DNA from: a virus
Taxonomy: Duplodnaviria > Caudoviricetes
IMG/VR virus record: IMGVR_UViG_3300031994_000065
Span: 17,295 to 81,294 of that record
Strand: one strand, 5' to 3'
Length of the DNA stretch: 64,000 nt
This document shows, piece after piece, positions 7,591 to 21,620 of this stretch (positions are counted from its first letter, which is position 1; each line of letters opens with the position of its first letter). The notes under the pieces are model-generated. The model ran no database searches and had not been told where the DNA came from. It worked only from the letters and a program-made list of their open reading frames with translations. The position numbers and the translations under genes are program-made.

Positions 7591-7710
7591 CCTCCTTAAA
7601 GATGTGGATCGTAGGTTTTCGTCAATTTAGTACAAGAGAACTCCTACTAAACTCTCATACACCACGATAATATATATTCATAGGTGGGGGCGATGTCAGA
7701 TCGGAAAATT
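7591..7710 (-). promoter_or_regulatory. Repeated early expression cassette, copy A (type 1)
   Basis: CTGACA-N17-TATATATTAT, then leader GAGAGTTTAGTAGGAGTTCTCTTGTACTAAATTGACGAAAACCTACGATCC and SD; near-identical to 15874-15985 and 16715-16834. Confidence 0.9.
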
Positions 7711-7748
7711 AGGTATATTGCTATAATACATGAAAAAGATAGATAACA

Positions 7749-7772
7749 AAGGAGGGAACTAAACCCCTCCTT
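7749..7772 (-). terminator. Terminator of the exonuclease gene
   Basis: AAGGAGGG/CCCTCCTT stem at the gene end. Confidence 0.55.
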
Positions 7773-8901
7773 AAAATAATGATTTTTTCGAACGTGCAGA
7801 ATATTGATTCAGTTCGACGACATTAATTGGACTCATCTCGAAATATTTAGAATTCAGATTTTTCAATGCGTCATTCTCATACTTATCCACAAGCTGTTTC
7901 GTTATGTTGAGTTGTTGCGGTTCTGAGACCATGCCAAGTTGTCTGTCTAAATCGACGCACATGATACTGTTAGCAATTCGCTCTTTGTTATCATCATTAG
8001 GACCGTCTTTGATTGCCATTATAAGGTGTTCTAATCCAATTATTTCAGCTTCACTTATATCCAGCTCTTTGAACAATTTGTGTAATCTCTTGTATATGGT
8101 TTTCCATCCACAACCTTTGATCTTTCCGATACCGCGACGTTTATCTCCAACTATGGCAAGAATGAAAGTAATCAGGTATGCAGGAAGTTTGTGTGAATTC
8201 TTTATATCGTGTTTCTCTCTGATGATGGTAAAAAGATTCTCTTTGGTTACTATGTAACTTTCGTCACCTTTTGGATACATAACCAAGAAGTTCTTGTTGA
8301 CGTATTGCAAATCGTATTCGTCTCTGGTTATCAAAATATTCAATTGACCATCGAGTGCTTTAGAGTTGCATAACAACAGAGGAACGAGAGAACTTTCGAG
8401 TCTATTTGATGTTACCAAATATACACCTTCCACATAACCCACTATGGTTCTGAGAGCTTTGATGACAGACTCCAGAACCATATTAGTTGCCTCGTAGTTT
8501 GGATTGTCGGTGTAATCGTAAATGAATCTCTCGCGATAGTGTTTAAGAAACATCGTATTATTCAGTGTCGTGTATTTATCGTATTCATTCATGAATAGAA
8601 CGATATTAGTCTTGATTCTGTTTTTGGTAAAGAATCGACGATAATGCCCGGCAAGATTCAGAATGTTACTGATAATGGAAAAATGAAAGTTCTTGGTTTC
8701 AGTTTTATCCATAGAAAGAATGAATTCTTCTACGGTTTGGTTATGTATGCAATGAATAATTGATTCGAGATTGATGAATATATTTACTCGATCTATTACT
8801 TCTCTAATACCAACAGAACCAAATAGAAGATTCATTTTTTCGAACTTAATCTTGTGAGCATTGAATATCTTATCAATCGTTTCAGATGAACTTGAAATCA
8901 T
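7771..8901 (-). CDS. 5'-3' exonuclease / flap nuclease (T4 RNase H-like)
   Basis: H3TH-like motif GDKRRGIGKIKGCGWKT; acidic residues in LESSLV and ITRDEYD. Confidence 0.7.
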   Translation of the reverse strand: MISSSSETIDKIFNAHKIKFEKMNLLFGSVGIREVIDRVNIFINLESIIHCIHNQTVEEFILSMDKTETKNFHFSIISNILNLAGHYRRFFTKNRIKTNIVLFMNEYDKYTTLNNTMFLKHYRERFIYDYTDNPNYEATNMVLESVIKALRTIVGYVEGVYLVTSNRLESSLVPLLLCNSKALDGQLNILITRDEYDLQYVNKNFLVMYPKGDESYIVTKENLFTIIREKHDIKNSHKLPAYLITFILAIVGDKRRGIGKIKGCGWKTIYKRLHKLFKELDISEAEIIGLEHLIMAIKDGPNDDNKERIANSIMCVDLDRQLGMVSEPQQLNITKQLVDKYENDALKNLNSKYFEMSPINVVELNQYSARSKKSLF

Positions 8902-8930
8902 TTCAATCCCTTCTTCAGATAAAAAATATT

Positions 8931-8951
8931 GGGCGGGAAAGGTTCCCGCCC
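8931..8951 (-). terminator. Intrinsic terminator
   Basis: GGGCGGGAA/TTCCCGCCC stem with downstream T-run on the minus strand. Confidence 0.65.
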
Positions 8952-8976
8952 TTAACGTGTGTTTCCTTGTCAGATT

Positions 8977-9864
8977 TTATTTCGTCGTGATGTGTTCGAT
9001 GATTTCGCGGATGTCACTGCCGCCATTGCCGAGTTCGCGCAAACGTGCGACTCGGTACATCACATTGCTGCCTTGCTGAGCTGTATCGAGCAGAATGACA
9101 CGGTAAGCTCTGTTGTGCAAGAACAGCGCACTCAGAACGGCGTCCGGGTTGAGTTCGATATAGCAAAATGCTCTGCCGTTTTTGTCGCGTTTCTGAGACT
9201 CGTTCACTACGAGTTTGCTCGTATCGACAAACGGTTTGACAAGCTCTTTCAATTTTGCATCCAAACGAACGTGTGCGCCACGCGCTTTGCCGCCGAGCAA
9301 TTCGAGTTCGATGTCGTTAGCCGAGCGACCATTCACGACAAGATGTTCCATCTTCGGAAAGATGAGATACATCTTGGGAATGTCGTTCAGTACTGCAGCG
9401 CCATCCCCGAAATAGATGTAGCGGTAACCGTGATGCTCGAAGTATTTTTCGAAATACGTCGAAATGTCGCGACTCGTGAACGTGAAGATCGACCCACTGG
9501 GATCGAGTCCGAGACGATTGTCGTTCGCGCGGTTCCCAATGACACATCCGCCTTCGTAGTTATACAAACCATTCGGATCGCTCACGTCGGATTGTGGACG
9601 AGTGAAAGGTTTACCACCTCCGTCTTTCGGACGTTGCGGTTGCGGATTCGGCTGACGCTGTTCGCGCTGTTGTTGACGCGGTTGATGTACTTGCTGCTTG
9701 GGTTTCGGAGTAGGTTCAGGTTTAACCACCGGCTCTGCCTCCTCTTCTTTTTCGAATTCGTCGTTGTCTTCAAACGGATCGGGCAATTTGCTCGCTGCCG
9801 ATTTGACCGTGCTTTCTTCGCCGACTGCACGGTACAAGCGAATTTCCTCGCTGCTTACTTCCAT
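8977..9864 (-). CDS. Hypothetical early protein with Pro/Gln-rich N-terminal linker
   Basis: 295 aa, SD AAGGAGG, early promoter at 9909-9918. Confidence 0.8.
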   Translation of the reverse strand: MEVSSEEIRLYRAVGEESTVKSAASKLPDPFEDNDEFEKEEEAEPVVKPEPTPKPKQQVHQPRQQQREQRQPNPQPQRPKDGGGKPFTRPQSDVSDPNGLYNYEGGCVIGNRANDNRLGLDPSGSIFTFTSRDISTYFEKYFEHHGYRYIYFGDGAAVLNDIPKMYLIFPKMEHLVVNGRSANDIELELLGGKARGAHVRLDAKLKELVKPFVDTSKLVVNESQKRDKNGRAFCYIELNPDAVLSALFLHNRAYRVILLDTAQQGSNVMYRVARLRELGNGGSDIREIIEHITTK

Positions 9865-9908
9865 GAGTAATGCGCCTCCTTCTTTAATTTGTGGTCGTAA
9901 CCGAGTTT

Positions 9909-9918
9909 ATAATATATA
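9909..9918 (-). promoter_or_regulatory. Early promoter core TATATATTAT
   Basis: Exact match to the motif found 9 times upstream of minus-strand genes. Confidence 0.7.
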
Positions 9919-9993
9919 CTTAGAAATCGCGTTAAAATACAGCCACTCCTATAGTTAGTTGTGACTGCATTTATAATAGATTAGCGATTCCTT

Positions 9994-11040
9994 TTATCTG
10001 TTGACTTTTGCAAAATTTCTTTCCATAAGTGACCTAACTTGCGGAGCCCAGTTATAGTTATCCGGGCAGTAGACGGGGTTGATCGAACTGACCGTATCTA
10101 AGCCGCGTGCAAAATAACACTCATTGATAAGTTGCCCGAATGCATCGATATTTTCTTTTTTCGAGCTGTAACTTAATCCCATCATTCCGAAAAGGTTATT
10201 ATCATTCAACGCCATAAATGAAGTCCCATGACCGCTTTCGAGTTGTGCAACAGCCAAAGCAAATACGGCATTGACTCCGTATGTGGATTCCATTTCGTAG
10301 AACACATGACCTAACCCTTCGAGACCGGTTCCGGCAACAATCGATTCCAGTTCATCCATACTCAATCCACATCGTTCGGTTATTACGTCTGAAAGCGGAT
10401 AAACCGGTGGAATAAGGTTGACTCTGTAATGTTCGATTTTGCCACTGCTAAGAAACGGTTTGACGTGTTCATAGTAATACGAACTGGGATAGTAATCGAC
10501 TTTAACGAATCGTTTTTCAATATATGCTGCTTCGCCGATGCAATAGAAGTTGCTGTTGTAGATTAACGGAACAATCTCGTATGTATTGTACTTGTCTAAT
10601 TGTATCGGTTTGTCGTCTTCAGCAGGCTGTTTGTAACATATCGCGTCGAGTTCGTTTCGAGTGAATAACACGCCGACGATTTTTTCTGTCGAAGGCTTCT
10701 CAAATTTGTCAAGTTCGCAGTACGCTCTGTATTCGCCAGCTACTCCCCATTGTGGATTAATGGGGCTGACCGAGATAGCAGTACCACTAGGAAGCGTGCC
10801 AATGAGTCGAGCCGAAGAATCGGGTTCGGCATACATCGGAACATCTTGTGTAGAGACGCAAACCAAGTCTGCAAATTTGTCTATTTCTACAAGGGGTTCC
10901 GCTTCCGCAACGTTTGTCTGAACAATCTGTTCATCTGTCGCCGGATTGACTCGAGGATTGAAGAAGTTGTGATTGATTCCGGCTCCAATCAGCATCGCAC
11001 CAGTTACACAGATCGCCGCGATTAGATGTTTAGTATACAT
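9994..11040 (-). CDS. Cell-wall hydrolase: N-terminal signal/TM, SH3b-like domain, glucosaminidase (GH73-like) domain
   Basis: YGVNAVFALAVAQLESGHGTS...NNLFG motif; SH3-like MYAEPDSSARLIGTLPSGT; late promoter at 11069-11080. Confidence 0.8.
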   Translation of the reverse strand: MYTKHLIAAICVTGAMLIGAGINHNFFNPRVNPATDEQIVQTNVAEAEPLVEIDKFADLVCVSTQDVPMYAEPDSSARLIGTLPSGTAISVSPINPQWGVAGEYRAYCELDKFEKPSTEKIVGVLFTRNELDAICYKQPAEDDKPIQLDKYNTYEIVPLIYNSNFYCIGEAAYIEKRFVKVDYYPSSYYYEHVKPFLSSGKIEHYRVNLIPPVYPLSDVITERCGLSMDELESIVAGTGLEGLGHVFYEMESTYGVNAVFALAVAQLESGHGTSFMALNDNNLFGMMGLSYSSKKENIDAFGQLINECYFARGLDTVSSINPVYCPDNYNWAPQVRSLMERNFAKVNR

Positions 11041-11283
11041 TAGTGGATTCCTCCTTTGAGATTGAGTTTACCACTATGTCCGCAGCTTTTAGGAAATAAC
11101 CGTATCTTATTTTGCTTAAATCAAGCAATATTTGAGTTACACCAAACCAATTATTAAAATTTCATTAAAAATGTACTGGTCAAGATATATACATCGAATC
11201 ATTGCGTGTATTCTGATGTGAATATCGGCTGATTTGGGCTGAAGACAAAGCGATAATACACTACACAGAAAGAAGGTGAAGAA

Positions 11284-12594
11284 ATGGGTCAATTATTACG
11301 AGGACAGATGTTCGGAACAGGTTTTGAGAAGCAAATTTATCATGATAATCATTCTGAGTTCGAGCAGAAAGTCCATAGCCAGTATGCGAAATATCTCAGT
11401 GAACTTCCAATATTCACTGAATACTTTCACATAGTTAAAGCATTAACTACGGAAGATACCGGTTTGTTAAACATTGATAAATTGACTGGAGACAGCTCAC
11501 CGTTCAGATACAATCTCATTAAAGATTTTCCTCTGTTTGGTCTCGAGCAGATTCTTCTCGATATCGAAGATAATGATGATGTTGGTTTACAGACAAACTA
11601 CGAGGGTGAGGCAATAATTCTTCCACAAACTATAACTCCGTTACCGGATGATGCATTTATTGCAACAGCTCTTGGAAAGAAATGGTTTTTCCGTGTAATC
11701 GAAATTCATTACGACACAATTCTTGCGAAGAACTATTACAAGATTAATTTTGTGGTAAAAGGTGTCGATAATGGTTATTATTACGAGGATTATCTTAAGA
11801 AGGTAAACGACACATTCATTTGCGTTTACGACAATTATGGAACACAAGACGCATTTCTCATAAAGGAAGAGAATTATGATATTACTAATAAGCTCCAGAA
11901 AATGGCAGATGAATTATCAAGGAAATATCTCACTTTCTTCTATAATGAGAAATATAATGCGTTGATGGTTAAGAATCCACATGGTTACAATATGCTGTAT
12001 GATGCTTATGTGAATTACTTCTGTAATGAGCAATCGATATTTGCTCAGAATCCAAGAAACTTTTGGAATTATAAGTTCTATGTAGAAACCAGACCGGAAT
12101 TTGAGTTCTTCTATAACGCAAACTCAATTCAATCGGTTGTCATTAACAAAGATTTGGAATTGATTCAATCACCAAGATTTATGCGGTATTATGATACTAT
12201 TCCCACTTTCACCGATTCAATATTCCAGTTCTATGGAGATTTTGACACTTCCGGAATAACGATAAGTGAACGACATATAAATCCATTTGGTAGACAGATT
12301 CATCCGTTAATACCTCAAGATTTGTTTGAAGCAATCTGCTCTAATGGAAACGTTGATACCACAAATTTGATCTACAATGTCTTGGTGAAATACATCAATA
12401 ATGATATTGAAAGTGTAGGAAAACTTTTAGGTAATTTCAATGACAAAATTCGCGTTAGACCCACATACTTGGATTATGTCTTGATACCTCTATTCCTGTA
12501 CATTCTTTATCAATACAAGAAGTCTGTTACCAAGACAAACAATAATTATGTTGAGAATGAACAGCTTCGACAAAAACTTAAAATCTCACACTGA
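11284..12594 (+). CDS. Conserved jumbo-phage virion structural protein
   Basis: 436 aa; TGDSSPFRYNLIKDFPLFG motif recalled from phiKZ/AR9-like virion proteins. Confidence 0.5.
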   Translation: MGQLLRGQMFGTGFEKQIYHDNHSEFEQKVHSQYAKYLSELPIFTEYFHIVKALTTEDTGLLNIDKLTGDSSPFRYNLIKDFPLFGLEQILLDIEDNDDVGLQTNYEGEAIILPQTITPLPDDAFIATALGKKWFFRVIEIHYDTILAKNYYKINFVVKGVDNGYYYEDYLKKVNDTFICVYDNYGTQDAFLIKEENYDITNKLQKMADELSRKYLTFFYNEKYNALMVKNPHGYNMLYDAYVNYFCNEQSIFAQNPRNFWNYKFYVETRPEFEFFYNANSIQSVVINKDLELIQSPRFMRYYDTIPTFTDSIFQFYGDFDTSGITISERHINPFGRQIHPLIPQDLFEAICSNGNVDTTNLIYNVLVKYINNDIESVGKLLGNFNDKIRVRPTYLDYVLIPLFLYILYQYKKSVTKTNNNYVENEQLRQKLKISH

Positions 12595-12597
12595 AGA

Positions 12598-12939
12598 ATG
12601 GAGGAATTTGAGATGCTTAAGACATTACGTTCACAATTGGCAACTAAAAAGGCAGATGCTTCGTTTGAAGGATTTGTCCTTGATGCTATTGAACGCGCAC
12701 CTCAGAGAGATATCATGCTCGAAGAATGCGATGCTCCGGAATGTTGGCATGAAGACGACGATTACTGCGATGAAGATATTGGCAAGTTGATCGATGCTCT
12801 TCCCGAATCCGACATCGATTTGGATAATGAAGCGATTATTCAAGGAATTATTCGTGGTCGCGACGAACAGGGTAACGAGAAAGATATGTCAGTGGAAGAA
12901 TGTTGCGAGGCGTATATACCGCCCACTGAAGAAGTTTAA
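12598..12939 (+). CDS. Small acidic hypothetical (virion) protein
   Basis: 113 aa, cotranscribed, very acidic. Confidence 0.65.
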   Translation: MEEFEMLKTLRSQLATKKADASFEGFVLDAIERAPQRDIMLEECDAPECWHEDDDYCDEDIGKLIDALPESDIDLDNEAIIQGIIRGRDEQGNEKDMSVEECCEAYIPPTEEV

Positions 12940-12954
12940 GAAAGGATGAAACTA

Positions 12955-13464
12955 ATGGAAACTGATATGACTACATTCGTAGACAAGAAACTTGTAAAAG
13001 TTACAGATCGTGGTCCGATTATGCCGCTCGGTGGAATCTATGGACCCACTCTTCCTCAGATTATGACCGTTAAAACGATTGCGATTCTCTTGCAAAAGGG
13101 TTATCACGTTACGGAAATTCTGAATAATAAGTCTGAAGTTAAACTCAGTCTTTCGAACTACAATGTCGACATCAATGGCGATGGTGGTGAAGGTCTTAAA
13201 AAGGTTAAGAAACCTGATGAAGATATTAAGCCTCTGCCGAAGAAAAATGCCAAAGTCGAAACTCCTGCGCCTGAAGCAAAAACTGAAAAACCTGCTGAAA
13301 AAGAATCGGTTAAAGTTGAGACTGCCGTCGTTGAGAATAAGATTACCGTATCAGCGGCTGGAGGTAAGGCTGAAGCCGATTCTAAAAGGAATGGTAATGA
13401 CGCTGGAGGTCTTATGAGTACCAAAAAAAATAAGCCTAAGGCGGACGAACTTACCTCTAAGTAA
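12955..13464 (+). CDS. Hypothetical protein with Lys/Glu-rich tail
   Basis: ATG 12955 after AAAGGA; followed by a terminator. Confidence 0.7.
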   Translation: METDMTTFVDKKLVKVTDRGPIMPLGGIYGPTLPQIMTVKTIAILLQKGYHVTEILNNKSEVKLSLSNYNVDINGDGGEGLKKVKKPDEDIKPLPKKNAKVETPAPEAKTEKPAEKESVKVETAVVENKITVSAAGGKAEADSKRNGNDAGGLMSTKKNKPKADELTSK

Positions 13465-13481
13465 TTTGGGATTAAAACGAG

Positions 13482-13526
13482 AAAAAAAAACCGGGGAGCA
13501 ATCTGATAGAATTTGCTCCCCGGTTT
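13482..13526. terminator. Bidirectional terminator
   Basis: AAACCGGGGAGCAA/TTGCTCCCCGGTTT stem with a 9-T tail on the minus strand. Confidence 0.8.
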
Positions 13527-13553
13527 AACCGTTTTTTGAACTGCTGCTACTGA

Positions 13554-13589
13554 TTAGCGGCGAGTTCCACAAGTGCTATTGTCACCCAT
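13554..13589 (-). CDS. Candidate 11-aa micro-peptide MGDNSTCGTRR
   Basis: SD AAAGGAGG 8 nt upstream of ATG; lies between an early promoter and a terminator. Confidence 0.35.
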   Translation of the reverse strand: MGDNSTCGTRR

Positions 13590-13635
13590 GGTCGTCACCT
13601 CCTTTCAGTAACAGGAGGGTGGTTTTACGTTTCAT
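13582..13635 (-). CDS. Candidate 17-aa leader peptide MKRKTTLLLLKGGDDHG
   Basis: SD GGGGGAGG upstream; overlaps the SD hairpin of the 11-aa ORF. Confidence 0.35.
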   Translation of the reverse strand: MKRKTTLLLLKGGDDHG

Positions 13636-13700
13636 TTACCTCCCCCCACATTTATTAGATTTAAGTCGCAGCTACTAATTTCACTGCGTCTTATACCTAT

Positions 13701-13733
13701 ATAATATATATTTTCGATTCTAAGATATGTCTA
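13701..13733 (-). promoter_or_regulatory. Early promoter TAGACA-N17-TATATATTAT
   Basis: Same architecture as the cassette promoters. Confidence 0.7.
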
Positions 13734-15120
13734 AATCGATTTCTCCAGTTCTACTGACAGAAATACCTTCAATTGTCGATTCCAAAACCGTTTTGGTTCT
13801 GTAGAATGTGATTCTCCGTACAGGCATCTTCGGCAATTTTCTTTCTCTGGAACGTAAGAAAATGTCAGATATATGAATGAAGTAATTCTTGTGAACATCG
13901 TTATCAAACATTTTCACCATAGTTACGATTGACTTTTCTTCGTCTCGATACACATGAACCGGGATATATATCGTATCTTTCATCTTCACTGCTACTTTGA
14001 ATGCAGTATCTCGCTCAATATCGTCATTGTCTCCACATATGTAATATCCGTCTATGATGCCTCTGCGGTCCATTTCCAATACATCGTGCGCAACACTGGT
14101 TCCCTCTTTAATTGGTGGGAATCCAAAATTTTCGACCATGTTTAACAGAGCCATATCACATATCTTATTGACGATGCGATAATTGCTTAAGAATTGATGG
14201 ATTTCTTCATCGGAGAAATTTCGAAAGTTTGAAGGTCTGGCTAAGAAACCGAAATCATTCATATTACTGAGATTAATTCCATTAGTAGCCCAATCTCTTG
14301 GATTTAGAAGTTCATCTTTCATTCGCCAGTCATATTCGCTAGTGAGTGGCCATTGGTCATCATCCGGTTTACTTTGTCTAATAACAAAGTCAATATCGTC
14401 ACACATCTTAGTGATTATCGGAGCATCAATATGCTTCTTGATTTCACCAAATGCATTTATTAACATATCTTTGTTAGCAACTCGCCGAATCTTTTCTAAC
14501 ATATTGGCGTCGTACACCGATTTTGTATAGAAAAAATTTCTGGTTATGTCGTAGCAAAGTTTCAGGTCTGTGTCATAGACGTAATCCGAAATTCTTGTGG
14601 TGTTAAATCGTCCGTTCAGAATATAATCTTTATCGAGATAATTCTGAGCGGATTTCTTAATAGCTTGGTTTATTGCGTCATTTAATCTGTCACTAAACTG
14701 ACATGAATGATGTTGATGCGCTGGATCTACCAGTTGATTCCTGAAGATATTAGACCATTTATCAAATGTGAGCACACCTTCAGCATAATCAGTCGCGTTC
14801 ATTATGACGTGTTTTTCTTCCATTGTGATGGTTGGGGCTTCTAAGTAATCTATAGAAGACGATTCTGCTGCGATAATATCTTTATCTGCGTATGGTTTAA
14901 ATGCCGAATATTTCTTCAGTTTGACTTTCATGTTGTATTGTTTGGCGAGTCTGTTTATATTCGCAGCTAATTGCTTACGCTTTTTTGGTGGGCATGTATG
15001 GAAGTACGCAATCGCACTACGGACGTGATTTTCGTCGGGCATTGGAAAAGCTCTATCTTCCGGAAGACCGAACTGATCTGCGGGGAGTTCTTTTCTTTGA
15101 GCACTAGAAAGTTTAGGCAT
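13720..15120 (-). CDS. Hypothetical virion protein with N-terminal DUF6582-like domain
   Basis: FGLPEDRAFPMPDENHVRSAIAYF motif; late promoter at 15138-15149. Confidence 0.65.
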   Translation of the reverse strand: MPKLSSAQRKELPADQFGLPEDRAFPMPDENHVRSAIAYFHTCPPKKRKQLAANINRLAKQYNMKVKLKKYSAFKPYADKDIIAAESSSIDYLEAPTITMEEKHVIMNATDYAEGVLTFDKWSNIFRNQLVDPAHQHHSCQFSDRLNDAINQAIKKSAQNYLDKDYILNGRFNTTRISDYVYDTDLKLCYDITRNFFYTKSVYDANMLEKIRRVANKDMLINAFGEIKKHIDAPIITKMCDDIDFVIRQSKPDDDQWPLTSEYDWRMKDELLNPRDWATNGINLSNMNDFGFLARPSNFRNFSDEEIHQFLSNYRIVNKICDMALLNMVENFGFPPIKEGTSVAHDVLEMDRRGIIDGYYICGDNDDIERDTAFKVAVKMKDTIYIPVHVYRDEEKSIVTMVKMFDNDVHKNYFIHISDIFLRSRERKLPKMPVRRITFYRTKTVLESTIEGISVSRTGEIDLDIS

Positions 15121-15180: not shown

Positions 15181-15206
15181 AAAAAAAACCACGCGGTTTT
15201 GCGTGG
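15181..15206 (-). terminator. Intrinsic terminator after cassette B cargo
   Basis: CCACGC/GCGTGG stem plus 8-T tail on the minus strand. Confidence 0.75.
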
Positions 15207-15216
15207 CTGAATTGTT

Positions 15217-15873
15217 TCAATATGCGAAAGTCATAGGAATACCCATGTCTTTCAACATGTTGAAACAGCTGATGAAACCTTCTCTTGGTTTGAGATACTC
15301 AAACCGAAAGAAGACTTTCCAATTTTCGCCGTAGCGTTTCTTGTAAACTTTTTCCGCTTCTCCGGATTCGAAATTCGTGACGTAGTTTTCGTACGCCTTT
15401 TTCGAAATCCAGAACCCCACGATTTTTTGCGGAGCGACAAACGCCTCGGTGTAGGCGCTGTATTCGTCGTCGAGTTTTTCATAGTCGTCAACGATGAACT
15501 CCTCACGAATTGATGGGTAACGCTTCCCATCAATCGTGTAGCTCCCGCAATCAACGGAGGCCATTAACGACGTTTCGCCTTTCACATAAACGCCTATTAC
15601 GCCGAGTCCTCCGTTCATGAGCCTAGATTCAGGCCCGGGTTTCGAGCAACTTATCTCGGCTCCGGTGCCAAGAATGGTCAACAGTTTTTCGAGTGCGACC
15701 GCAGGCGACTGCGATCTGTTGACAGCGTTGAGGCCGTGCGCCCAGACCACTCCGTCAGTTCCTCTCGGAACATGACGTGATTTGAGCGCCTTAGCGTTTT
15801 CGAACGCCTTTCTCTCCTCGTCGTTCAAATCATCTGATTTCACACCATTGACGTAAATGCTCATTTCAAACAT
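15217..15873 (-). CDS. Hypothetical early protein (cargo of cassette B)
   Basis: 218 aa, SD within the repeated leader. Confidence 0.8.
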   Translation of the reverse strand: MFEMSIYVNGVKSDDLNDEERKAFENAKALKSRHVPRGTDGVVWAHGLNAVNRSQSPAVALEKLLTILGTGAEISCSKPGPESRLMNGGLGVIGVYVKGETSLMASVDCGSYTIDGKRYPSIREEFIVDDYEKLDDEYSAYTEAFVAPQKIVGFWISKKAYENYVTNFESGEAEKVYKKRYGENWKVFFRFEYLKPREGFISCFNMLKDMGIPMTFAY

Positions 15874-15985
15874 CCTCCTTAAAGATGTGGATCGTAGGTT
15901 TTCGCAATTTAGTACAAGAGAACTCCTACTAAACTCCTATACACCACGATAATATATACTTATGGGAGAGGGTAATGTCGGAACG
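15874..15985 (-). promoter_or_regulatory. Repeated early expression cassette, copy B (type 1)
   Basis: CCGACA-N17-TATATATTAT plus conserved leader and SD. Confidence 0.9.
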
Positions 15986-15998
15986 TAAAAAGGAGAAA

Positions 15999-16041
15999 AA
16001 GCCAGAACCTATTAAGGTTCTGGCTTTGTCACGCTTCTTGT
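15999..16041. terminator. Hairpin terminator, duplicate of 17044-17085
   Basis: AAGCCAGAACCT/AGGTTCTGGCTT followed by TGTCACGCTT in both copies. Confidence 0.75.
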
Positions 16042-16070
16042 TGTGGGAGGTAAAAAATATCTCCTTGAGG

Positions 16071-16133
16071 GAAAAAGAATCTGTGCCGCAAATGTGTGCG
16101 GTGTCTGTGCCGATTTACGACACAGATTCTTTC
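16071..16133 (-). terminator. Branched 3' structure/terminator (copy 2)
   Basis: AAAGAAUCUGUG/CACAGAUUCUUU stem, CCGCA/UGCGG hairpin, U-tail; covaries with 7081-7148. Confidence 0.7.
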
Positions 16134-16138
16134 GTGAA

Positions 16139-16714
16139 TCATTTCCAGCCTTTTGCGCAGATAACCTTCGGAATATATTTCCAATACTGCACCGATTGCG
16201 CGCAGGTGTAAAGACGTATTGTCTTGTCAGCCCAACACACAAGCTTTCCATTGTTATATGGAAGTAGTATTGTTTCATATAAACTGATAGTGTTTTTGTC
16301 GCGTTTGAAACTGCGCCCGTTGAAATGGAAGTCTTGATGGCTACCATTACAACAAGAGATGAGTGTGTACTCTCCCTTGTCGAATTTGTTCGCCATCGAG
16401 AAATGATTTTCTTTCTTGCCTTCGATAATGAATTCTGCGAATCCTCCGTGAACGCAAGCAACCAGCCCCTGATCTGTTACTAACGGGACTGCTTCCATCT
16501 GGACGGCGAACCTTTTCAAGAATGACCATATGGTCAATTTCTTTCCAGTATCCGCGTATCTCACATCGGTGTACAACGACGCAGTTCCGTTTTTGACTTT
16601 GAAGTACGCGATAACGTACATCGCGCCGAACAGAATTGCCCCTCCTGTGAGACCCCAAATGACGTTAATAACGGAGACGATCGAATTTACCAGAGCGTTT
16701 TTCATTTCAAACAT
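16139..16714 (-). CDS. Hypothetical early protein with N-terminal transmembrane segment (cargo of cassette C)
   Basis: 191 aa; hydrophobic SIVSVINVIWGLTGGAILFGAMYVIAYF. Confidence 0.8.
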   Translation of the reverse strand: MFEMKNALVNSIVSVINVIWGLTGGAILFGAMYVIAYFKVKNGTASLYTDVRYADTGKKLTIWSFLKRFAVQMEAVPLVTDQGLVACVHGGFAEFIIEGKKENHFSMANKFDKGEYTLISCCNGSHQDFHFNGRSFKRDKNTISLYETILLPYNNGKLVCWADKTIRLYTCAQSVQYWKYIPKVICAKGWK

Positions 16715-16834
16715 CCTCCTTAAAGATGTGGATCGTAGGTTTTCGTCAATTTAGTACAAGAGAACTCCTACTAAACTCTCATACACCACGATAATATATA
16801 CTTAGGAGGGTGGGCGATGTCAGATTGAAAAATT
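16715..16834 (-). promoter_or_regulatory. Repeated early expression cassette, copy C (type 1)
   Basis: CTGACA-N17-TATATATTAT plus leader identical to copy A over the core. Confidence 0.9.
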
Positions 16835-16855
16835 ATATCGTGTCAACATATCATT

Positions 16856-17034
16856 AGATGCATCTATAATACTAATGTGCGGGCAATAGCTCCACTTTAA
16901 GGGAAGATAGGTTATTGGTGACAAACGCCTAAGTTGTACTCGGCTTATATAGTAGACTTCGGATTAACCCGCCTCGAAGTCGCCGCGTAACAGAATTGGC
17001 GGCTAGGCCTATCTTCCTGGGAGTCGTTTTTTTT
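16856..17034 (+). ncRNA. Candidate structured ncRNA (multi-way junction), family unknown
   Basis: Late promoter at 16845-16856; 12-bp closing stem GGAAGAUAGGUU/GGCCUAUCUUCC, four internal hairpins, G-U pairs favour the plus strand; ends in an 8-T run; no ORF. Confidence 0.65.
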
Positions 17035-17043
17035 GCGGACAAT

Positions 17044-17070
17044 AAGCCAGAACCTTGTAGGTTCTGGCTT
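17044..17070. terminator. Terminator after nrdD
   Basis: 12-bp stem AAGCCAGAACCT/AGGTTCTGGCTT. Confidence 0.75.
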
Positions 17071-17091
17071 TGTCACGCTTTTTGTAGTTTG

Positions 17092-19377
17092 TCAGATTGA
17101 AATCATCGGTACGGTTTTGTGATGCCACGATTCGTGTTCTTTGCGTTTGCAGTGTGGGCATTCGTTTTTTATAATACCGGTATAACCACAGACCGGGTCG
17201 CGGTCGACAGGGTGGTTCACACTGAAATATCCCATATTTGCATCGTGCATGGCTCGTACAAGTTTTTCAAAAGCTTCTACATTTTGGAGAGGATCCCCAT
17301 TGTACTCAATATAGCTTATCGCGCCAGCATCACATTTTTCATGGTATGGTGCTTCGATACGAATTTTATCGATAGCTCGTATCTTATAATACACAGGAAC
17401 ATGGAAACTGTTCGTGATGTACAATCTATCGGTGACACCACGTATGATTCCATAATCTTTGCGATTCGCTTTTTGAAATGTATTTGCTGTCCCTTCGGCT
17501 GGAGTTGAAAAGGTTGACCAATTCATTTTTTCTTCAACTTTAAACTTGTCGGTTTTGTCACGAAGATGTTGGACGATTTCCAATCCGAACCGTTGCGAAT
17601 CCTCATTCTCTCCATGATGTTTTCCTGTTAATGCTATTAAAGTTTCTGCAAGACCACAGAATCCAATAGAAAGGGTAGCATTTTTCAAAACTTTTCGTAT
17701 AGTATCATTTGGCGATAATTCATCGCTTCCCATCCAAACGCCTTGACCCATCAAAAACGGAAAATTGAAAACGTGTTTATCTGCAATAATTTGAAAACGG
17801 TAAAGAAGATAATCGTGACTAAGTTGAATATAGTGATCGTATATCTCGTAGAAACGTTTTATGATCTCTTCTTGTGGTGCGTTGTTTCCAAGTTGACGTT
17901 TTGCTTCGAGTGCAAATTTTGGAAGATTAAGAGTCACAAAACTAAAATTTCCTCTTCCACCAGTTTCTTCAGGTCCATTCACATTTCCGATAACACGGGT
18001 ACGGCATCCCATCGTTGCAGCGTATGTATTATAATTTCCTGGTTTATAATACTTCAAGTTAAAAGTGGCATCACACGATACAAAGTTCGGGTACAACCTC
18101 TTAGCACTCACTTCACATGCACGCTTAAATAAGTCGTAATTTGGATCGCCTGGGTTGAAATTGATTCCTGATTTAATCTGAAAAATCGAAATTGGAAATA
18201 GTGGAGATTCTCCCTTTCCCATTCCAGCATCAATAGCGTTGAGAGTTTCTCTTATTGCCAATCGTCCCTCTGGAGAAGTATCCATACCAAAGTTGATAGA
18301 ACTGAACGGAACTTGCCCGCCTGACCTAGCGTGTAAGCTATTAAAATTATACACCATTGCTTCCATAGCTTGACGTGTCTCTTCTTCAGTGGCATCTTTT
18401 GCTATTTCATAAATTGAATGAAGACCATCCCATTCGTTTCGCTCGACTTCCATGAAAACTTTACAGAAAACTCTCCATATTTCTTCTATGGTTTCCCAAT
18501 AATCACTAGAATTCTTAATGTCTTTATCTTCGACGTAATGTATCTTTGTTCTATCGAATTCTTCTTTGACTTCTTTACTAACCGTGTGCTTGTCGTACAT
18601 GTTCGATGTCACAAATTGTCCAAATTCAACCGTTTTAGATATAATTTCTTTCACGAATGTTTTTCTGATCCCTTCAGCCATCGCATAATCTTCTGCATTT
18701 AGTGACTGGCCTCCGAAACAGTCGTTCTGGTCTGATTGAATTGCCACACATGCTAAAGCTGCATATGATCGAATAGAGCCTGGTTCTCTTATATGACCAT
18801 GACCTGTTGAAAACCCACCGTGAAACAGTTTCAGTAGATCAATTTGACAACAATTCAACGTTATCATTGAGAAATCGTTATCGTGTTCATGAATGAAATG
18901 TTGACGATGTGCTTCAGCAAATTCTTTTGGTTGGGTATTAAGCGCGAATTCTTTTGCTCCATCTGATCCAAGTTTAAGCATTATGCCCATTGGACCATCA
19001 GTGTTAATATTTGCATTTTCCCTCTTATCGTCCATCGCTGAGGCATCAGTAAACAAAATGTCTTTATAAGTTTGCATGAGATTCTTCTTCGATTCCCGAC
19101 GAAGCATATGTTTATATCTGTAACAAATATACTTCTTGGCTATCTCGAAAAATCCGTGTTGCATAAGACGACGTTCCACGACATCTTGAATATCTTCGAC
19201 TGATATTTCAGTACGATCACCAATATCGGACTCTATCTGTTCAATGATATTCTCAAGATCGCGTTCGGTCATTTGTTCGACGGAAGCGTTGTTAGCTCCA
19301 ACAATCGCTTTGTAAATTTTCGATCGGTCGTATGAAACCAACGAACCGTCGCGTTTGATAACGCGTTCAAGATTCAT
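17092..19377 (-). CDS. nrdD: Anaerobic (class III) ribonucleoside-triphosphate reductase large subunit; C-terminal glycyl-radical motif absent
   Basis: N-terminal ATP-cone VIKRDGS; LNCCQID; GGQVPFSSINFG; finger-loop MGCRT; NHPVDRDPVCGYTGIIKNECPHC. Confidence 0.93.
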   Translation of the reverse strand: MNLERVIKRDGSLVSYDRSKIYKAIVGANNASVEQMTERDLENIIEQIESDIGDRTEISVEDIQDVVERRLMQHGFFEIAKKYICYRYKHMLRRESKKNLMQTYKDILFTDASAMDDKRENANINTDGPMGIMLKLGSDGAKEFALNTQPKEFAEAHRQHFIHEHDNDFSMITLNCCQIDLLKLFHGGFSTGHGHIREPGSIRSYAALACVAIQSDQNDCFGGQSLNAEDYAMAEGIRKTFVKEIISKTVEFGQFVTSNMYDKHTVSKEVKEEFDRTKIHYVEDKDIKNSSDYWETIEEIWRVFCKVFMEVERNEWDGLHSIYEIAKDATEEETRQAMEAMVYNFNSLHARSGGQVPFSSINFGMDTSPEGRLAIRETLNAIDAGMGKGESPLFPISIFQIKSGINFNPGDPNYDLFKRACEVSAKRLYPNFVSCDATFNLKYYKPGNYNTYAATMGCRTRVIGNVNGPEETGGRGNFSFVTLNLPKFALEAKRQLGNNAPQEEIIKRFYEIYDHYIQLSHDYLLYRFQIIADKHVFNFPFLMGQGVWMGSDELSPNDTIRKVLKNATLSIGFCGLAETLIALTGKHHGENEDSQRFGLEIVQHLRDKTDKFKVEEKMNWSTFSTPAEGTANTFQKANRKDYGIIRGVTDRLYITNSFHVPVYYKIRAIDKIRIEAPYHEKCDAGAISYIEYNGDPLQNVEAFEKLVRAMHDANMGYFSVNHPVDRDPVCGYTGIIKNECPHCKRKEHESWHHKTVPMISI

Positions 19378-19413
19378 AAGCGTTACCTCCTTTGAATTAG
19401 TTTAAGGGTAAGT

Positions 19414-19441
19414 TGAGGAAGAGATTCGAATCTCTTCCTCA
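19414..19441. terminator. Palindromic hairpin after the amidase gene
   Basis: TGAGGAAGAGA/TCTCTTCCTCA. Confidence 0.6.
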
Positions 19442-19449
19442 TTTTGAGT

Positions 19450-20052
19450 TTATTTGTAATTCTTTCTGAATTCTGGGAGATACCAAAGAGCTTTTCCTCT
19501 GAGAACGTCTCCACCGCGAGAACCGTCTATTGCATGAGGATTAAACTTTGGGGATTCTGAAGTTTCAAGATATTCCAAATCCCAGCGTTCACAAGTTGAT
19601 TTCGGTCCATATTGTTCATGACACCACAAACCATCTTCATTATCTGCAGCTTCTCCATGTGTCATTACATGACCTGGATTGATTGTGAGCCATAATCCTT
19701 CAGCTACTGCACAAACAGCCAAAGCCATACTTTCAATCTGTGCAGCGGTTGGAGGATTCGGACCTAAGTCTTTGGTATCCGCATATACCGCACAACATAT
19801 TGTGATGTTGATAGCTCCACTGTTACGTTTGTATGTTCCGGCGATAACATCAGCAAAATTATCTGTACTGGCATAATATTTGCCATTCTTATCGATATTG
19901 ATATGGTAGTCGTCAGACTTATTATCGTACCAACCAGCAGTCCAGTGGAGATAAATCTTTGGTTCTCTACCAAGTGCTTTTGCTTTATCCCAAACTTCTT
20001 CTCGGGCAGCAGAAGCGAGTTGATAGATTTCTTTAAGTGTAACTTCACGCAT
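19450..20052 (-). CDS. N-acetylmuramoyl-L-alanine amidase (Amidase_2-like endolysin)
   Basis: IYLHWTAG, YHINID, RNSGAINI, VMTHGE motifs; late promoter at 20070-20081. Confidence 0.8.
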   Translation of the reverse strand: MREVTLKEIYQLASAAREEVWDKAKALGREPKIYLHWTAGWYDNKSDDYHINIDKNGKYYASTDNFADVIAGTYKRNSGAINITICCAVYADTKDLGPNPPTAAQIESMALAVCAVAEGLWLTINPGHVMTHGEAADNEDGLWCHEQYGPKSTCERWDLEYLETSESPKFNPHAIDGSRGGDVLRGKALWYLPEFRKNYK

Positions 20053-20105
20053 TTTCGTTCACCTACCTTTATGAGATTGTCTTGAATATTAAGAGGTTAG
20101 AAATG

Positions 20106-20134
20106 AAAAAAAAATCTCGCCCATATGAGCGAGA
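20106..20134 (-). terminator. Terminator after cassette D cargo
   Basis: TCTCGC/GCGAGA stem plus 9-T tail; homologous to 20957-20988. Confidence 0.7.
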
Positions 20135-20147
20135 CCGCAGCGGAGCG

Positions 20148-20636
20148 TTATTGCTCCAAGAGTTCATTGAGATAAACGACATCTTCAAACGAAAGATTGT
20201 TTTCCTTGATTATGGCGCGAGCCCAGTTGATGTAGCCGCCGAAGCAATACTGATCGTCAAAATAGTAGCGAATACCGTTGATGTCGACATACTCGCATTC
20301 TATTTCATCATCGAGCGTTTTGAACCATTGGCTTCCGACACTGATGCGGTTGGCGCGTTCGATCCGGGTAGGATTCGTTGCTCCATTGCAAATTATTTCG
20401 GCCGCCTGTTTCGGTGTTACGATGTCAACATCAAAGATGCCAACCTCGTGCCAATCATCGCTCACAACAGCATACTTTTTGTAATATGCCGTGCTGATGT
20501 AGTAATGCGGATGACTATGGCACTCATGGAAGTTCGGGCACCGGGATCCGATGCACTCACCATCGAAATCCTCTGGTTCAGTGCATTGAAAGTTGAGTAT
20601 TTGACCCAGCTCGTATCCGAAATCGTCTGTGGTCAT
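20148..20636 (-). CDS. Hypothetical early Cys/His-containing protein (cargo of cassette D)
   Basis: 162 aa; SD AAGGAGG 8 nt upstream. Confidence 0.75.
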   Translation of the reverse strand: MTTDDFGYELGQILNFQCTEPEDFDGECIGSRCPNFHECHSHPHYYISTAYYKKYAVVSDDWHEVGIFDVDIVTPKQAAEIICNGATNPTRIERANRISVGSQWFKTLDDEIECEYVDINGIRYYFDDQYCFGGYINWARAIIKENNLSFEDVVYLNELLEQ

Positions 20637-20640
20637 TCCA

Positions 20641-20751
20641 AATCCCTCCTTAAGGGATCGTAGGTTTTTTCATCTTAGTAGTGAGCTGCCTACTTAACTC
20701 TTCTACGCGTATATAATATATAAATGTGGGTGGGGGTGATGTCGGATTGAA
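20641..20751 (-). promoter_or_regulatory. Repeated early expression cassette, copy D (type 2)
   Basis: CCGACA-N17-TATATATTAT plus leader GAGTTAAGTAGGCAGCTCACTACTAAGATGAAAAAACCTACGATCC; identical core to copy E. Confidence 0.9.
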
Positions 20752-20815
20752 ATTAAACCCTTCTTAAAAAAGGTAATTCGATTCCGATGATGAATCATAT
20801 AAGGAGGCAAACATC

Positions 20816-20995
20816 ATGAAATTTGGTGGTATTACACTTGGTGGTCGGAACATTATCGTACCAACCAGCAGTCCAGTGGAGATAAATCTTTGGTTCTCTA
20901 CTAAATGCTTTTGCTTTACCCCATACTTCTTCTCGGGTATTGCGAGGTTGGAAAACAAAAAAAAATCACGCCCGTATAATGAGCGTGACCGGTGA
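20816..20995 (+). pseudogene. Chimeric remnant: 5' end of the 21684 gene fused to an amidase fragment
   Basis: MKFGGITLGG start, then 20852-20937 matches 19921-20006 at 82/86 nt; its late promoter is degraded. Confidence 0.85.
20957..20988 (-). terminator. Terminator after cassette E cargo
   Basis: TCACGC/GCGTGA stem (compensatory variant of TCTCGC/GCGAGA) plus 9-T tail. Confidence 0.7.
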
Positions 20996-21010
20996 GCGTG
21001 ACGTGACCAG

Positions 21011-21496
21011 TTAGAAGAACCATCCCATTTTGCGGGCGGTTTCGCGGAAACGTTCCCAATTTTCGTCGCGGATCGTTGATACCGCTTTGTCTTTGACGCT
21101 TTCTACAATCGCATCGTAGACATCGCAGTCCCACTTATCGGGCAACTTGATCTCATCGTCCCAATCCCAGTTCTCAATAAATGTGATCTGGTTGCGGCGG
21201 ATGATGTCATCATGGCCTGATTCCGGCGGAAAGATCTCGTAGTACTCATCGTACATTTCGTCGAGCTTCGACGAGCTGTAATAGTCGAGATGATACGTCG
21301 AAACGAACGCCTTCACGTCCATCTCATCTGAGATGAGCGCTTGGAAATCATCGAGATAATCCGAATGGACCGTCTCGAAAAACTCCCAGTTTTTCGCATA
21401 ACGTTGATCGTATGGGAGCACTTTCTTGACCATCTTGTCCTTGAGAGAGTCAAGAAGCGCCCTTTCTCTCACGTCGAGGTCGCTGTACTTAATCAC
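21011..21496 (-). CDS. Hypothetical acidic early protein (cargo of cassette E)
   Basis: 161 aa, GTG start 8 nt after AAGGAG. Confidence 0.75.
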   Translation of the reverse strand: MIKYSDLDVRERALLDSLKDKMVKKVLPYDQRYAKNWEFFETVHSDYLDDFQALISDEMDVKAFVSTYHLDYYSSSKLDEMYDEYYEIFPPESGHDDIIRRNQITFIENWDWDDEIKLPDKWDCDVYDAIVESVKDKAVSTIRDENWERFRETARKMGWFF

Positions 21497-21500
21497 TCTA

Positions 21501-21620
21501 CCATCTCCTTACGAGGCGAGGATCGTAGGTTTTTTCATCTTAGTAGTGAGCTGCCTACTTAACTCTTCTACGCGTATATAATATATAAATGTGGGTGGGG
21601 GTGATGTCGGATTGAAATTA
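21501..21620 (-). promoter_or_regulatory. Repeated early expression cassette, copy E (type 2)
   Basis: Same promoter and leader as copy D. Confidence 0.9.

Follow-up and report, generated by a model that had tools for sequence, protein, structure and literature searches.

Five repeated units of predicted early promoter and structured leader in an uncultured AR9/PBS1-like jumbo phage

The window analysed here, a 64-kb stretch of DNA within an 81-kb parent record, belongs to an uncultured AR9/PBS1-like jumbo phage from a sheep gut metagenome, whose Shine-Dalgarno (SD) signals are of the Firmicute type. A first-pass annotation had placed five copies of a structured leader in this window, and all five were found where it had placed them, on the minus strand. 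The sequence AAACCTACGATCC is found at five places in the window and no others, where chance would give 1.4 matches with two mismatches allowed; a window search with GAGTTWAGTAGG returned the same five sites, and no sixth copy was found across the 81-kb parent record. The positions stood, but the proposed unit was too short: the conserved stretch reaches approximately 60 nt further upstream, through an invariant TATATATTAT-6N-G that is preceded by an 18-nt C-rich block (TCYGACATyrCCCnCnCC). A 34-nt pattern running from this block to the promoter has five matches in the window vs. 0.00 expected. Each unit is therefore ordered as C-rich block (TCYGACAT..CCC), TATATATTAT-6N-G, reported core and SD hairpin, the core of copy A being made up of a 5' hairpin, AGUAGG, an A-rich linker and CCUACGAUCC. 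The features are as follows (TSS, transcription start site; RNAP, RNA polymerase).

7661..7700, minus strand: copy A upstream part, with C-rich block 7683-7700, TATATATTAT 7667-7676 and 6-nt spacer (AR9 consensus, PMC5312081)
7606..7660, minus strand: copy A leader core, type 1a, 55 nt; predicted TSS G 7660; 79.5 bits
7579..7605, minus strand: copy A SD hairpin, ACAUCUUU/GAGGAUGU; likely start AUG 7581-7579; gene to 7153
15943..15982, minus strand: copy B upstream part, with C-rich block, TATATATTAT 15949-15958 and spacer
15889..15942, minus strand: copy B leader core, type 1b, AGGAG variant, linker 1 nt shorter; predicted TSS 15942; 81 bits
15862..15888, minus strand: copy B SD hairpin; likely start AUG 15864-15862; gene to 15217
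16785..16824, minus strand: copy C upstream part, with C-rich block, TATATATTAT 16791-16800 and spacer
16730..16784, minus strand: copy C leader core, type 1a, same as A; predicted TSS 16784
16703..16729, minus strand: copy C SD hairpin; likely start AUG 16705-16703; gene to 16139
20707..20746, minus strand: copy D upstream part, with C-rich block, TATATATTAT 20713-20722 and spacer
20655..20706, minus strand: copy D leader core, type 2; predicted TSS 20706; 69 bits
20634..20654, minus strand: remainder of copy D SD hairpin and start AUG 20636-20634; gene to 20148
21572..21611, minus strand: copy E upstream part, with C-rich block, TATATATTAT 21578-21587 and spacer
21520..21571, minus strand: copy E leader core, type 2, same as D; predicted TSS 21571
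21494..21519, minus strand: copy E weaker SD pairing and GUG start 21496-21494; gene to 21011
25852..27438, plus strand: homologue of the AR9 virion RNAP beta' N-terminal subunit, belonging to the polymerase that presumably transcribes from these promoters

In the Bacillus jumbo phage AR9, the consensus of the early promoters read by the virion RNAP is AAATATATATTAT-(6N)-G+1 (Lavysh et al. 2017, PMC5312081), and TATATATTAT-6N-G matches it in all five copies. The TATATATTAT core and the G six nucleotides downstream are identical to those of the AR9/PBS1 early promoters, whereas this phage does not keep the AAA that precedes the core. Exact matches to TATATATTAT-6N-G number eight in the window vs. 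0.03 expected; all 10 matches in the 81-kb record are intergenic and oriented into genes, and the sites lie ahead of small hypothetical genes as they do in AR9/PBS1, with an AR9-like virion RNAP beta' subunit encoded in the same window. Each copy contains a virion-RNAP early promoter as judged from this match, and early timing of its transcription is presumed. The promoter inside the repeat had been overlooked in the first-pass annotation. Each predicted start site lies 6 nt upstream of GAGUU, and thus upstream rather than downstream of the motif, so that the motif would be transcribed as a leader; the earlier view of it as a 5' leader is most probably right on the basis of these predicted starts. 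The available metatranscriptome contigs cover only genes next to the leaders.

The genes behind the five leaders encode mutually unrelated proteins without a match in Pfam or PHROG searches, and each is followed by its own terminator; a terminator of the preceding unit gave scored matches only ahead of A and B. The repeats are genuine and form the front ends of five one-gene early cassettes, and at the D/E locus two alternative cassettes lie one behind the other, joined by a chimeric junction.

Beyond the window, searches brought the total to nine motif loci on three contigs with five distinct cores, all confined to one phage lineage. Nine of the 28 early promoters considered here carry the 52-55-nt conserved structured leader together with the C-rich upstream block. 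The leader is absent from the examined genome parts of relatives whose virion RNAP is 59-86% identical and in which early promoters are present, as well as from the first 50 kb of AR9, where early leaders are short (~30-40 nt), AU-rich and unstructured, unlike those of this phage. The leaders fall into really two deep lineages, type 1 vs. types 2 and 3, which leaves comparisons with low power.

Conservation between copies A and D is uneven. Identity is high in the upstream block (16/18), the promoter (10/10), GAGTTWAGTAGG (11/12) and the tail (14/14), whereas the 6N spacer (1/6), the gap between block and promoter (1/6), the segment between head and tail (8/23) and the flanks (22%) are saturated. 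This mosaic of intact blocks and saturated segments points to selection on the blocks.

All of the pairings named in the first-pass annotation can be drawn (GAGAGUU/AGUUCUC, GAGUU/AGCUC, AGUAG/CUACU, GUAGG/CCUAC and the SD hairpins). According to the folding models, the conserved fold is a hairpin beginning at +1, formed by GUAUGAGAG/CUCUUGUAC in type 1 and by GUAG/CUAC plus GAGU(U)/(AG)CUC in types 2 and 3. The invariant AGUAGG sits in the loop of this hairpin, and an A-rich linker and the invariant AAACCUACGAUCC come after it. This hairpin is the minimum free energy structure in type 2 and type 1d and, for the first 40 nt, in type 3; in copy D it has GUAG/CUAC as the outer and GAGUU/AGCUC as the inner helix around the loop AAGUAGGC. 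Types 1a and 1b can also form it, with an energy of -8.5 to -9.1 kcal/mol, but there a competing hairpin, AGUUUAGUA/UACUAAAUU, is favoured by 3-4.5 kcal/mol. The +1 pairing survives G5A and A6G in type 1b, and a U4.G pair in one type is replaced by G4-C in another. Folding of the entire leader gives weak z-scores (-0.2 to -2.75). Among the early leaders that lack the motif, a stable hairpin starting at nucleotide 1-2 was found in six of 19 vs. 2.0 expected (P ~0.008), two of which also have an SD hairpin, with sequences unrelated to the motif, suggesting that this layout is a general design of early leaders in these phages.

The proposed occlusion of the SD was borne out: the probability of an unpaired SD is 0.28 in the nine motif leaders vs. 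0.58 for 18 of the 19 other early leaders, and the SD is sequestered in all nine by at least four different sequences. The AUG within the hairpin of copies A-C (GGAGGAUG, spacing 0), which had been described as covered, is unlikely to be where translation starts; 9 nt further downstream, another AUG in the same frame (7581, 15864, 16705) has normal SD spacing. In copy D the hairpin AUCCCUU/AAGGGAU begins inside the conserved GAUCC of the core (~20659 to 20641), and in copy E the pairing is weaker, as previously described. The notion of a conserved structure with divergent sequence thus holds for the SD hairpin and in part for the 5' hairpin; it fails for the pseudoknot, both strands of which are invariant.

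Combined, these results favor, at somewhat better than even confidence, a module for early-mRNA stability and translation control, to which a factor may bind, at the front of a one-gene early cassette. The analysis itself shows the repeats, promoter match, block conservation, folding potential, SD occlusion and cassette organisation; the TSS, early timing, RNA-level function and any bound factor are inferred. The cassette would run from the terminator of the preceding unit through the untranscribed C-rich block, the TATATATTAT-6N-G(+1) virion-RNAP early promoter, the 52-55-nt leader and the SD-sequestering hairpin to an orphan ORF, unrelated to those of the other cassettes, and the terminator of that ORF. 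The +1 hairpin may shield early-mRNA 5' ends against 5'-dependent decay, the SD hairpin may act as a brake on, or timer of, translation, and the two invariant single-stranded blocks could define a small regulon, read by an RNA-binding factor of phage or host origin or else through GUAGG/CCUAC loop-tail pairing stacked on the SD hairpin. The conserved flanks may, secondarily, permit recombinational exchange of cargo genes.

Phage translational operators such as the T4 gene 32 leader pseudoknot and the T4 RegA/RegB target sites share no sequence similarity with the motif, but leader structure or short conserved sequences common to several early mRNAs could likewise let one factor time translation or decay. 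The search for such a factor with RegA and CsrA profiles identified none in phage records that are 22-32% complete; the RegA result says little because of this incompleteness and because the profile also found no match in control genomes. Stem-loops at the 5' terminus and strong ribosome-binding sites are known to make mRNAs of E. coli and B. subtilis more stable (reviewed in PMC3997798). As in the 5' stabilisers of the B. subtilis aprE leader, E. coli ompA/papA and phage SP82 (PMC3997798), the hairpin here starts within 0-2 nt of the predicted 5' end and is followed by a strong SD (AAGGAGG), a layout that recurs in several early leaders of these phages that are unrelated in sequence. However, 5'-terminal stabilisers work without an invariant loop or an invariant block downstream. 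Invariant blocks of 12 and 13 nt would be superfluous in a plain stabiliser, which also leaves the untranscribed upstream block unaccounted for. A motif in early 5'UTRs that is left unexplained is noted in the AR9 paper (Fig. S3 of PMC5312081).

An unlikely alternative is that the head, tail and upstream blocks act as DNA, either as sites for a phage regulator or as an extended promoter defining an early subclass (e.g., immediate-early, roadblock shut-off), with incidental RNA folds. The upstream block is untranscribed yet conserved at 16/18 positions and accompanies the leader at eight of nine loci, a relative whose virion RNAP is 68% identical has a similar block ahead of early promoters that carry other leaders (L079), and the blocks are kept as sequence rather than as pairs. 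However, the G002 locus at ~60509 on the minus strand (L015/L072) carries an identical leader without the upstream block, indicating that the two are separable. The folds are also strand-specific, through their G.U pairs and in the SD hairpins, other early leaders are enriched in hairpins that begin precisely at their predicted +1, and the ~28-bp GTAGG...CCTAC spacing would be unusual for a dimeric operator.

It is improbable that the cassette ends are alike merely through spread by duplication or gene conversion, without function beyond the promoter. The model for this is the promoter-early stem-loop (PeSL) cassettes of T4-like phages, multi-copy composites of terminator and early promoter between unrelated, mostly orphan genes that mark gene-swapping sites (PMC2839356, PMC4122927). 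Unrelated cargo genes between conserved flanks and the D/E tandem of alternative cassettes with its chimeric junction fit such swapping, and a relative with an 84% identical virion RNAP (L083) has a similar divergent early promoter with a different leader a few kb upstream of the RNAP gene. In contrast, PeSLs use host sigma-70 early promoters rather than a virion-RNAP promoter and have no conserved transcribed leader, whereas the bulk of the conserved sequence here lies in the 5' UTR. Intact 12- and 14-nt blocks amid a saturated spacer (1/6) and inter-block segment (8/23) would not result from tract-wise conversion or recent copying, and the invariant blocks are too short to drive homologous recombination alone.

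The ligand-responsive switch originally proposed, a self-contained H-type pseudoknot in which AGUAGG of P1 pairs with CCUAC and a ligand shifts the AGUAG/CUACU balance and SD access, is possible but unsupported, and was judged quite unlikely. The pairings are all possible, with plausible loops of 2 nt and 0-1 nt, a pseudoknot duplex of approximately -7.3 kcal/mol and type 1 alternative folds close in energy. As in preQ1-I and SAM-II, the loop could pair with a 3' tail across an A-rich linker beside the SD, and invariant cores are typical of ligand pockets. No Rfam family matches the motif, even at E values up to 10, so that a riboswitch, if real, would be new. Unlike preQ1-I and SAM-II, however, the motif has an extra 16-20 nt between stem and A-tract and a tiny phyletic range, with nine loci in one lineage. 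All five GUAGG/CCUAC pairs are invariant across the five distinct cores and hence show no covariation, a 5-nt loop-tail complementarity arises in 3-34% of shuffles, and the alternative hairpin is broken at two of nine pairs in type 2 and three of nine in type 3. The cargo is five unrelated orphan genes, and the same two-hairpin layout recurs in leaders of other sequences.

A leader peptide whose translation opens the SD hairpin is very improbable: a UUG or AUG start at leader positions 36-38 is present in all variants, K/R-K-P-T-I (within M-[K/R]-K-P-T-I...) is common to five variants, and the frame ends in or just after the SD hairpin, the loop of which holds the stop UAA in copies A, D and E and in the G001/G002 copy (L006/L060). 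However, the 16 nt ahead of the start contain no SD, a 1-nt insertion shifts the frame in types 1a and 1d (three of nine loci), an in-frame UAA in four of six cases has P ~0.1 by chance, and codons 3-6 are without synonymous variation, pointing to constraint at the nucleotide level over coding.

The repeated element in the window is a predicted AR9-type early promoter combined with a lineage-specific, selected 5' leader. The five-copy motif proposed by the first-pass annotation was borne out: reading of the sites and alignment of their reverse complements yielded five minus-strand copies (A and C, type 1a; B, type 1b; D and E, type 2), each directly 5' of a minus-strand ORF.

7153-7590, minus strand, ORF of copy A
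15217-15873, minus strand, ORF of copy B
16139-16714, minus strand, ORF of copy C
20148-20636, minus strand, ORF of copy D
21011-21496, minus strand, ORF of copy E

The sequence AAACCTACGATCC occurs exactly five times in the window, the head block GAGTTWAGTAGG was found at the same five sites, and a repeat finder returned the same repeat families. A sixth motif copy was not found in the 81-kb parent record, for which the IMG/VR completeness estimate is 32%. The conserved unit as first described was correct in its core and too short in its extent, missing an upstream block and a promoter element common to all five copies: the pattern TCYGACATyrCCCnCnCC-N6-TATATATTAT is present in every copy about 60 nt 5' of the core (5 matches vs. 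0.00 expected). Separately from this motif, a 30-nt sequence (AGGTTCTGGCTTTGTCACGCTT...) occurs three times at gene ends (16015-16044, 17059-17088 and 22305-22334), its first copy overlapping a scored terminator hairpin at 15998-16027, and two large plus-strand ORFs contain in-frame tandem repeats with a 24-nt unit, GGCGGTGGTGACAGCGGTGACGGC (938-1122, plus strand), and an 18-nt unit, CAGGTGGAAACGCTGCTA (2088-2177, plus strand).

The window encodes a split multisubunit RNA polymerase (RNAP) subunit, a major head protein, a large terminase, a tail sheath and a DNA polymerase, as well as NrdD and a GroEL-like protein, and the runs holding this DNA are sheep-gut metagenomes. The ORF at 25852-27438, whose AR9 counterpart carries a virion RNA polymerase (vRNAP) annotation (beta' subunit, N-terminal), matches an RNAP beta/beta' PHROG. 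Its best isolate matches, at about 35% identity, are in the Bacillus phages BpSp, Goe21, AR9 and PBS1, with Listeria phage LPJP1 and Staphylococcus jumbo phages also among them. In two close relatives, the vRNAP beta' gene is shorter (474-484 aa; locus L083, 7758-8636, and locus L084, 6453-7316) and has a NUMOD4/HNH homing-endonuclease ORF downstream of it, recalling the intron-split AR9 gene; in the fetched locus L079 (498-3503), three ORFs together make up the NrdD homologue.

In AR9, 41 early promoters read by the injected vRNAP have been mapped experimentally, with the consensus AAATATATATTAT-(6N)-G+1 (PMC5312081). In each motif copy, an invariant G follows TATATATTAT after a spacer of six variable bases, and TATATATTAT itself is invariant in all five window copies and in the four unique copies of two further motif-bearing contigs, G001 and G002. 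The TATATATTATNNNNNNG pattern has 8 matches in the window vs. 0.03 expected. Each of the ten TATATATTAT sites in the record lies in an intergenic region, oriented into a gene; as a sequence match, G occupies the seventh position past TATATATTAT in all motif copies and at 9 of these 10 sites. The AAA that stands just 5' of this core in the AR9 AAATATATATTAT is absent, the triplets here being GAA, AAG and ATT; on this comparison, the AR9-type promoter core is kept and its 5' extension is not. Because every copy combines TATATATTAT, six variable bases and an invariant G, start sites are predicted at 7660, 15942, 16784, 20706 and 21571 (minus strand), six nucleotides before GAGUU. A host sigma-70 promoter in the upstream block was rejected, as its best reading, CTGACA-17-TATATA, has no T at the sixth position of the -10 hexamer and was not called by a promoter scan either.

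The leader is present at half of the ten TATATATTAT sites, and the other five have unrelated leaders, mostly of 29-69 nt (one is longer by the start call made here); therefore, the leader is an optional module on a subclass of early promoters, outside the promoter proper. Across the three records, 28 early promoters are predicted, 9 of them with the leader.

Exact and degenerate DNA scans, with three patterns over IMG/VR and one over JGI metagenomes, located the motif beyond the window only on G001 (54 kb) and G002 (79 kb); the other metagenome matches and four extra IMG/VR matches were chance matches. The two contigs overlap, and neither matches the 8-kb structural stretch of the window with which they were compared. 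They contribute four unique motif loci; among these are two type 1 copies, one lacking 2 nt of the 3' arm and the other differing in its SD hairpin, and a third type, GAGUUAAGUAGGAUUACUCACUACUGAUAUGAAGAAACCUACGAUCC. No match was returned by a megablast of the region against isolate phages or by a related-locus search using the 376-aa neighbouring protein. The leader was not found in the fetched loci of six relatives (vRNAP 59-86% identical), in which early promoters are present, and the upstream block is present in one of these relatives. In L079, from a bioreactor metagenome (vRNAP 68% identical), similar upstream blocks, GACATATCGCCACCTC and GACCGAGCCTCACC, precede TATATATTAT (11620-11690 and about 21020-21070) and are followed by unrelated short leaders, indicating that the upstream block and the leader are separable modules. 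The covariance model R1 scored 69-81 bits on known copies, and no score above 15.7 bits was obtained in the relatives' loci or the first 50 kb of AR9. The early leaders of that AR9 stretch are short and AU-rich and lack structure.

Comparison of type 1 (copy A) with type 2 (copy D) revealed a mosaic of identity.

Identity between copies A and D, segment by segment
Upstream block: 16/18
Block-to-promoter gap: 1/6
TATATATTAT: 10/10
6N spacer: 1/6
Head block GAGTTWAGTAGG: 11/12
Head-to-tail segment: 8/23
Tail block AAAACCTACGATCC: 14/14
Outer flanks: about 22%

Intact 12-14-nt blocks stand beside saturated spacers, indicating that the blocks are under purifying selection. A DNA-level function of the conserved blocks is unlikely. 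A pure recombination handle is quite improbable, since such a mosaic would not be expected from recent copying or from tract-wise gene conversion.

The leader RNA can pair in three competing ways that draw on shared bases. Of its conserved elements, the hairpin from +1 has the best support; it is formed by G1UAUGAGAG9/C23UCUUGUAC31 in type 1 and, in types 2 and 3, by GUAG/CUAC plus GAGU(U)/(AG)CUC. This hairpin is the minimum free energy (MFE) structure in type 2, in type 1d (from G001/G002) and, for the first 40 nt, in type 3. Types 1a and 1b can form it at -8.5 to -9.1 kcal/mol, and their MFE structure is the hairpin AGUUUAGUA/UACUAAAUU (-11.7 and -13.6 kcal/mol, respectively), of which pairs 9:36 and 12:33 are lost in types 2 and 3 and pair 10:35 also in type 3. 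Type 1b carries G5->A and A6->G with both pairs kept, and position 4 changes from U.G to G-C between types; among only 5 distinct sequences, the variation in the +1 hairpin amounts to two changes confined to one side of a pair and one replacement of U.G by G-C. The pseudoknot GUAGG/CCUAC, the third pairing, is invariant at all five pairs in these 5 sequences, so the alignment speaks neither for nor against it. Among composition-matched shuffles, 3-34% also had a 5-nt loop-tail complement, and whole-leader folding z-scores are modest. The pseudoknot and mutually exclusive switch proposed earlier therefore hold as possible pairings and gain no support from these measures.

Hairpins at +1 were also observed outside the motif. 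Stable hairpins begin at nt 1-2 in 6 of 19 non-motif early leaders (2.0 expected, P about 0.008), two of which add an SD hairpin, with unrelated sequences. Strong cases are the G001/G002 loci L057, L061, L062 and L076 and genome position 31004 (window 13710, minus strand); an example of a non-motif +1 hairpin is GACUAGGAUU-GAAA-GAUUCUGGUC, at -12 kcal/mol. The hairpins of these leaders begin exactly at the predicted +1, which supports the start-site assignment. Stem-loops at the 5' terminus and strong ribosome-binding sites are both known to stabilise mRNAs in E. coli and B. subtilis (PMC3997798), and the leaders resemble such stem-loops in having a stable hairpin within a few nucleotides of the predicted 5' end.

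The SD-occluding hairpin, also anticipated from the sequence as being built from differing sequences, was confirmed: the SD is sequestered in 9/9 motif leaders by at least four sequences, including ACAUCUUU/GAGGAUGU, UACCUUU/GGAGGUA, AUCCCUU/AAGGGAU and UCCGUUUU/AGGACGGA, with weaker pairing in copy E. The mean probability of an unpaired SD was 0.28 in the nine motif leaders vs. 0.58 in other early leaders (18 of 19, one having no callable start). In D and type 3, the conserved GAUCC itself forms the 5' arm of the SD hairpin. In A-C, the AUG inside the SD hairpin abuts GGAGG with zero spacing, and the start codon is likely the in-frame AUG 9 nt further downstream.

The cargo proteins of A-E are mutually unrelated, ruling out cargo-gene paralogy as the cause of the leader likeness, and none of the five matched a Pfam or PHROG family. 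Terminators lie 3' of all five genes and also 5' of copies A and B. Downstream of the A and C genes, the same type of branched, GC-rich 3' element occurs, with a U-run at its end (AAAGAGUCCGCG...GCGGAUUCUUUUUCCC), and the D and E genes share another terminator type; therefore, the cassettes have conserved 3' frames besides their 5' frames.

7040-7150, minus strand, shared 3' element at copy A
16030-16135, minus strand, shared 3' element at copy C
19921-20006, segment of the D/E locus
20811-20995, segment of the D/E locus
21654-21712, segment of the D/E locus

At the D/E locus, two different cargo genes lie between duplicated flanks. The junction is chimeric: in ORF 20816-20995, 12 codons from the start of gene 21654-22247 (plus strand) are fused with an 86-bp antisense copy, 95% identical, of a fragment from inside gene 19450-20052. 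Such a tandem would be expected if two alternative versions of the locus had been joined. This tandem of alternative cassettes with a chimeric junction resembles the PeSL cassettes of T4-like phages, in which a composite terminator and early promoter are likewise repeated between unrelated genes; the early promoter there is of the host sigma-70 type, whereas the window has a vRNAP-type promoter. Among the relatives compared (vRNAP 59-86% identical), L083 carries another leader at a site in a comparable position.

The role of the leader would most likely be post-transcriptional, exerted on a small set of orphan early genes. It may protect the 5' ends of early mRNAs and time or throttle translation of these genes, and the invariant blocks could serve as a recognition site for a putative factor or as a loop-tail contact. 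A more specific proposal is a new cis-regulatory RNA of jumbo-phage early transcripts, in which the +1 hairpin and loop-tail pseudoknot would form an operator recognised by a small ligand or by an RNA-binding protein that the phage encodes or the virion delivers, co-ordinately switching the translation, stability or subcellular routing of an orphan takeover-gene regulon made by the injected vRNAP; we regard this full scheme as doubtful. Profiles for RegA (PF01818) and CsrA (PF02599) had no match in the contigs G000-G002 (22-32% complete), and the RegA profile missed control genomes too, so these negatives do not speak for absence. Complementarity of the blocks to 16S rRNA spans only 5-7 nt and does not extend to all types.

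A ligand-sensing riboswitch is very improbable. The pseudoknot and switch it could use are possible, but they are unsupported by the alignment or the shuffles; the motif was found in the scans on only three contigs of one lineage rather than recurring across diverse genomes; and the downstream genes are unrelated orphans, not a functionally related set. These data are not strong evidence for a new riboswitch class. The first-pass annotation had not recognised a known riboswitch or ribozyme, and a search of Rfam 15 agreed, with 0 matches at the gathering threshold over the whole window and noise only for two copies at E up to 10. An upstream ORF encoding a leader peptide is scarcely credible, given a frameshift in types 1a and 1d and the lack of both an SD and synonymous variation.

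For the promoter, these results carry the early-promoter rule of AR9, TATATATTAT-6N-G, over to an uncultured jumbo phage from sheep gut whose vRNAP is only about 35% identical; the early genes and start sites of such metagenomic phages are therefore predictable from sequence alone. A subset of early transcripts has the conserved structured leader and +1 hairpins are common among the remaining early leaders, together pointing to an unstudied layer of post-transcriptional control over jumbo-phage takeover genes. Additionally, with interchangeable orphan genes set in frames of promoter, leader and terminator, the cassettes suggest a route by which such phages may exchange early genes.

AR9-type late-promoter matches were seen as well, AACA-agaagg-TA at 21631-21642 (plus strand), 5' of gene 21654-22247, and GACA-atctca-TA at 20070-20081 (minus strand), 5' of the endolysin-like gene 19450-20052. 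Sheep-gut RNA contigs cover nrdD, 19450-20052 and 21654-22247, and none lies over the leader genes B-E. Contigs from three sheep-gut metatranscriptome runs end at 20057-20059, one with adapter sequence right after, and contigs from two of these runs start at 21659 and 21678; these ends all lie slightly inside the predicted starts.
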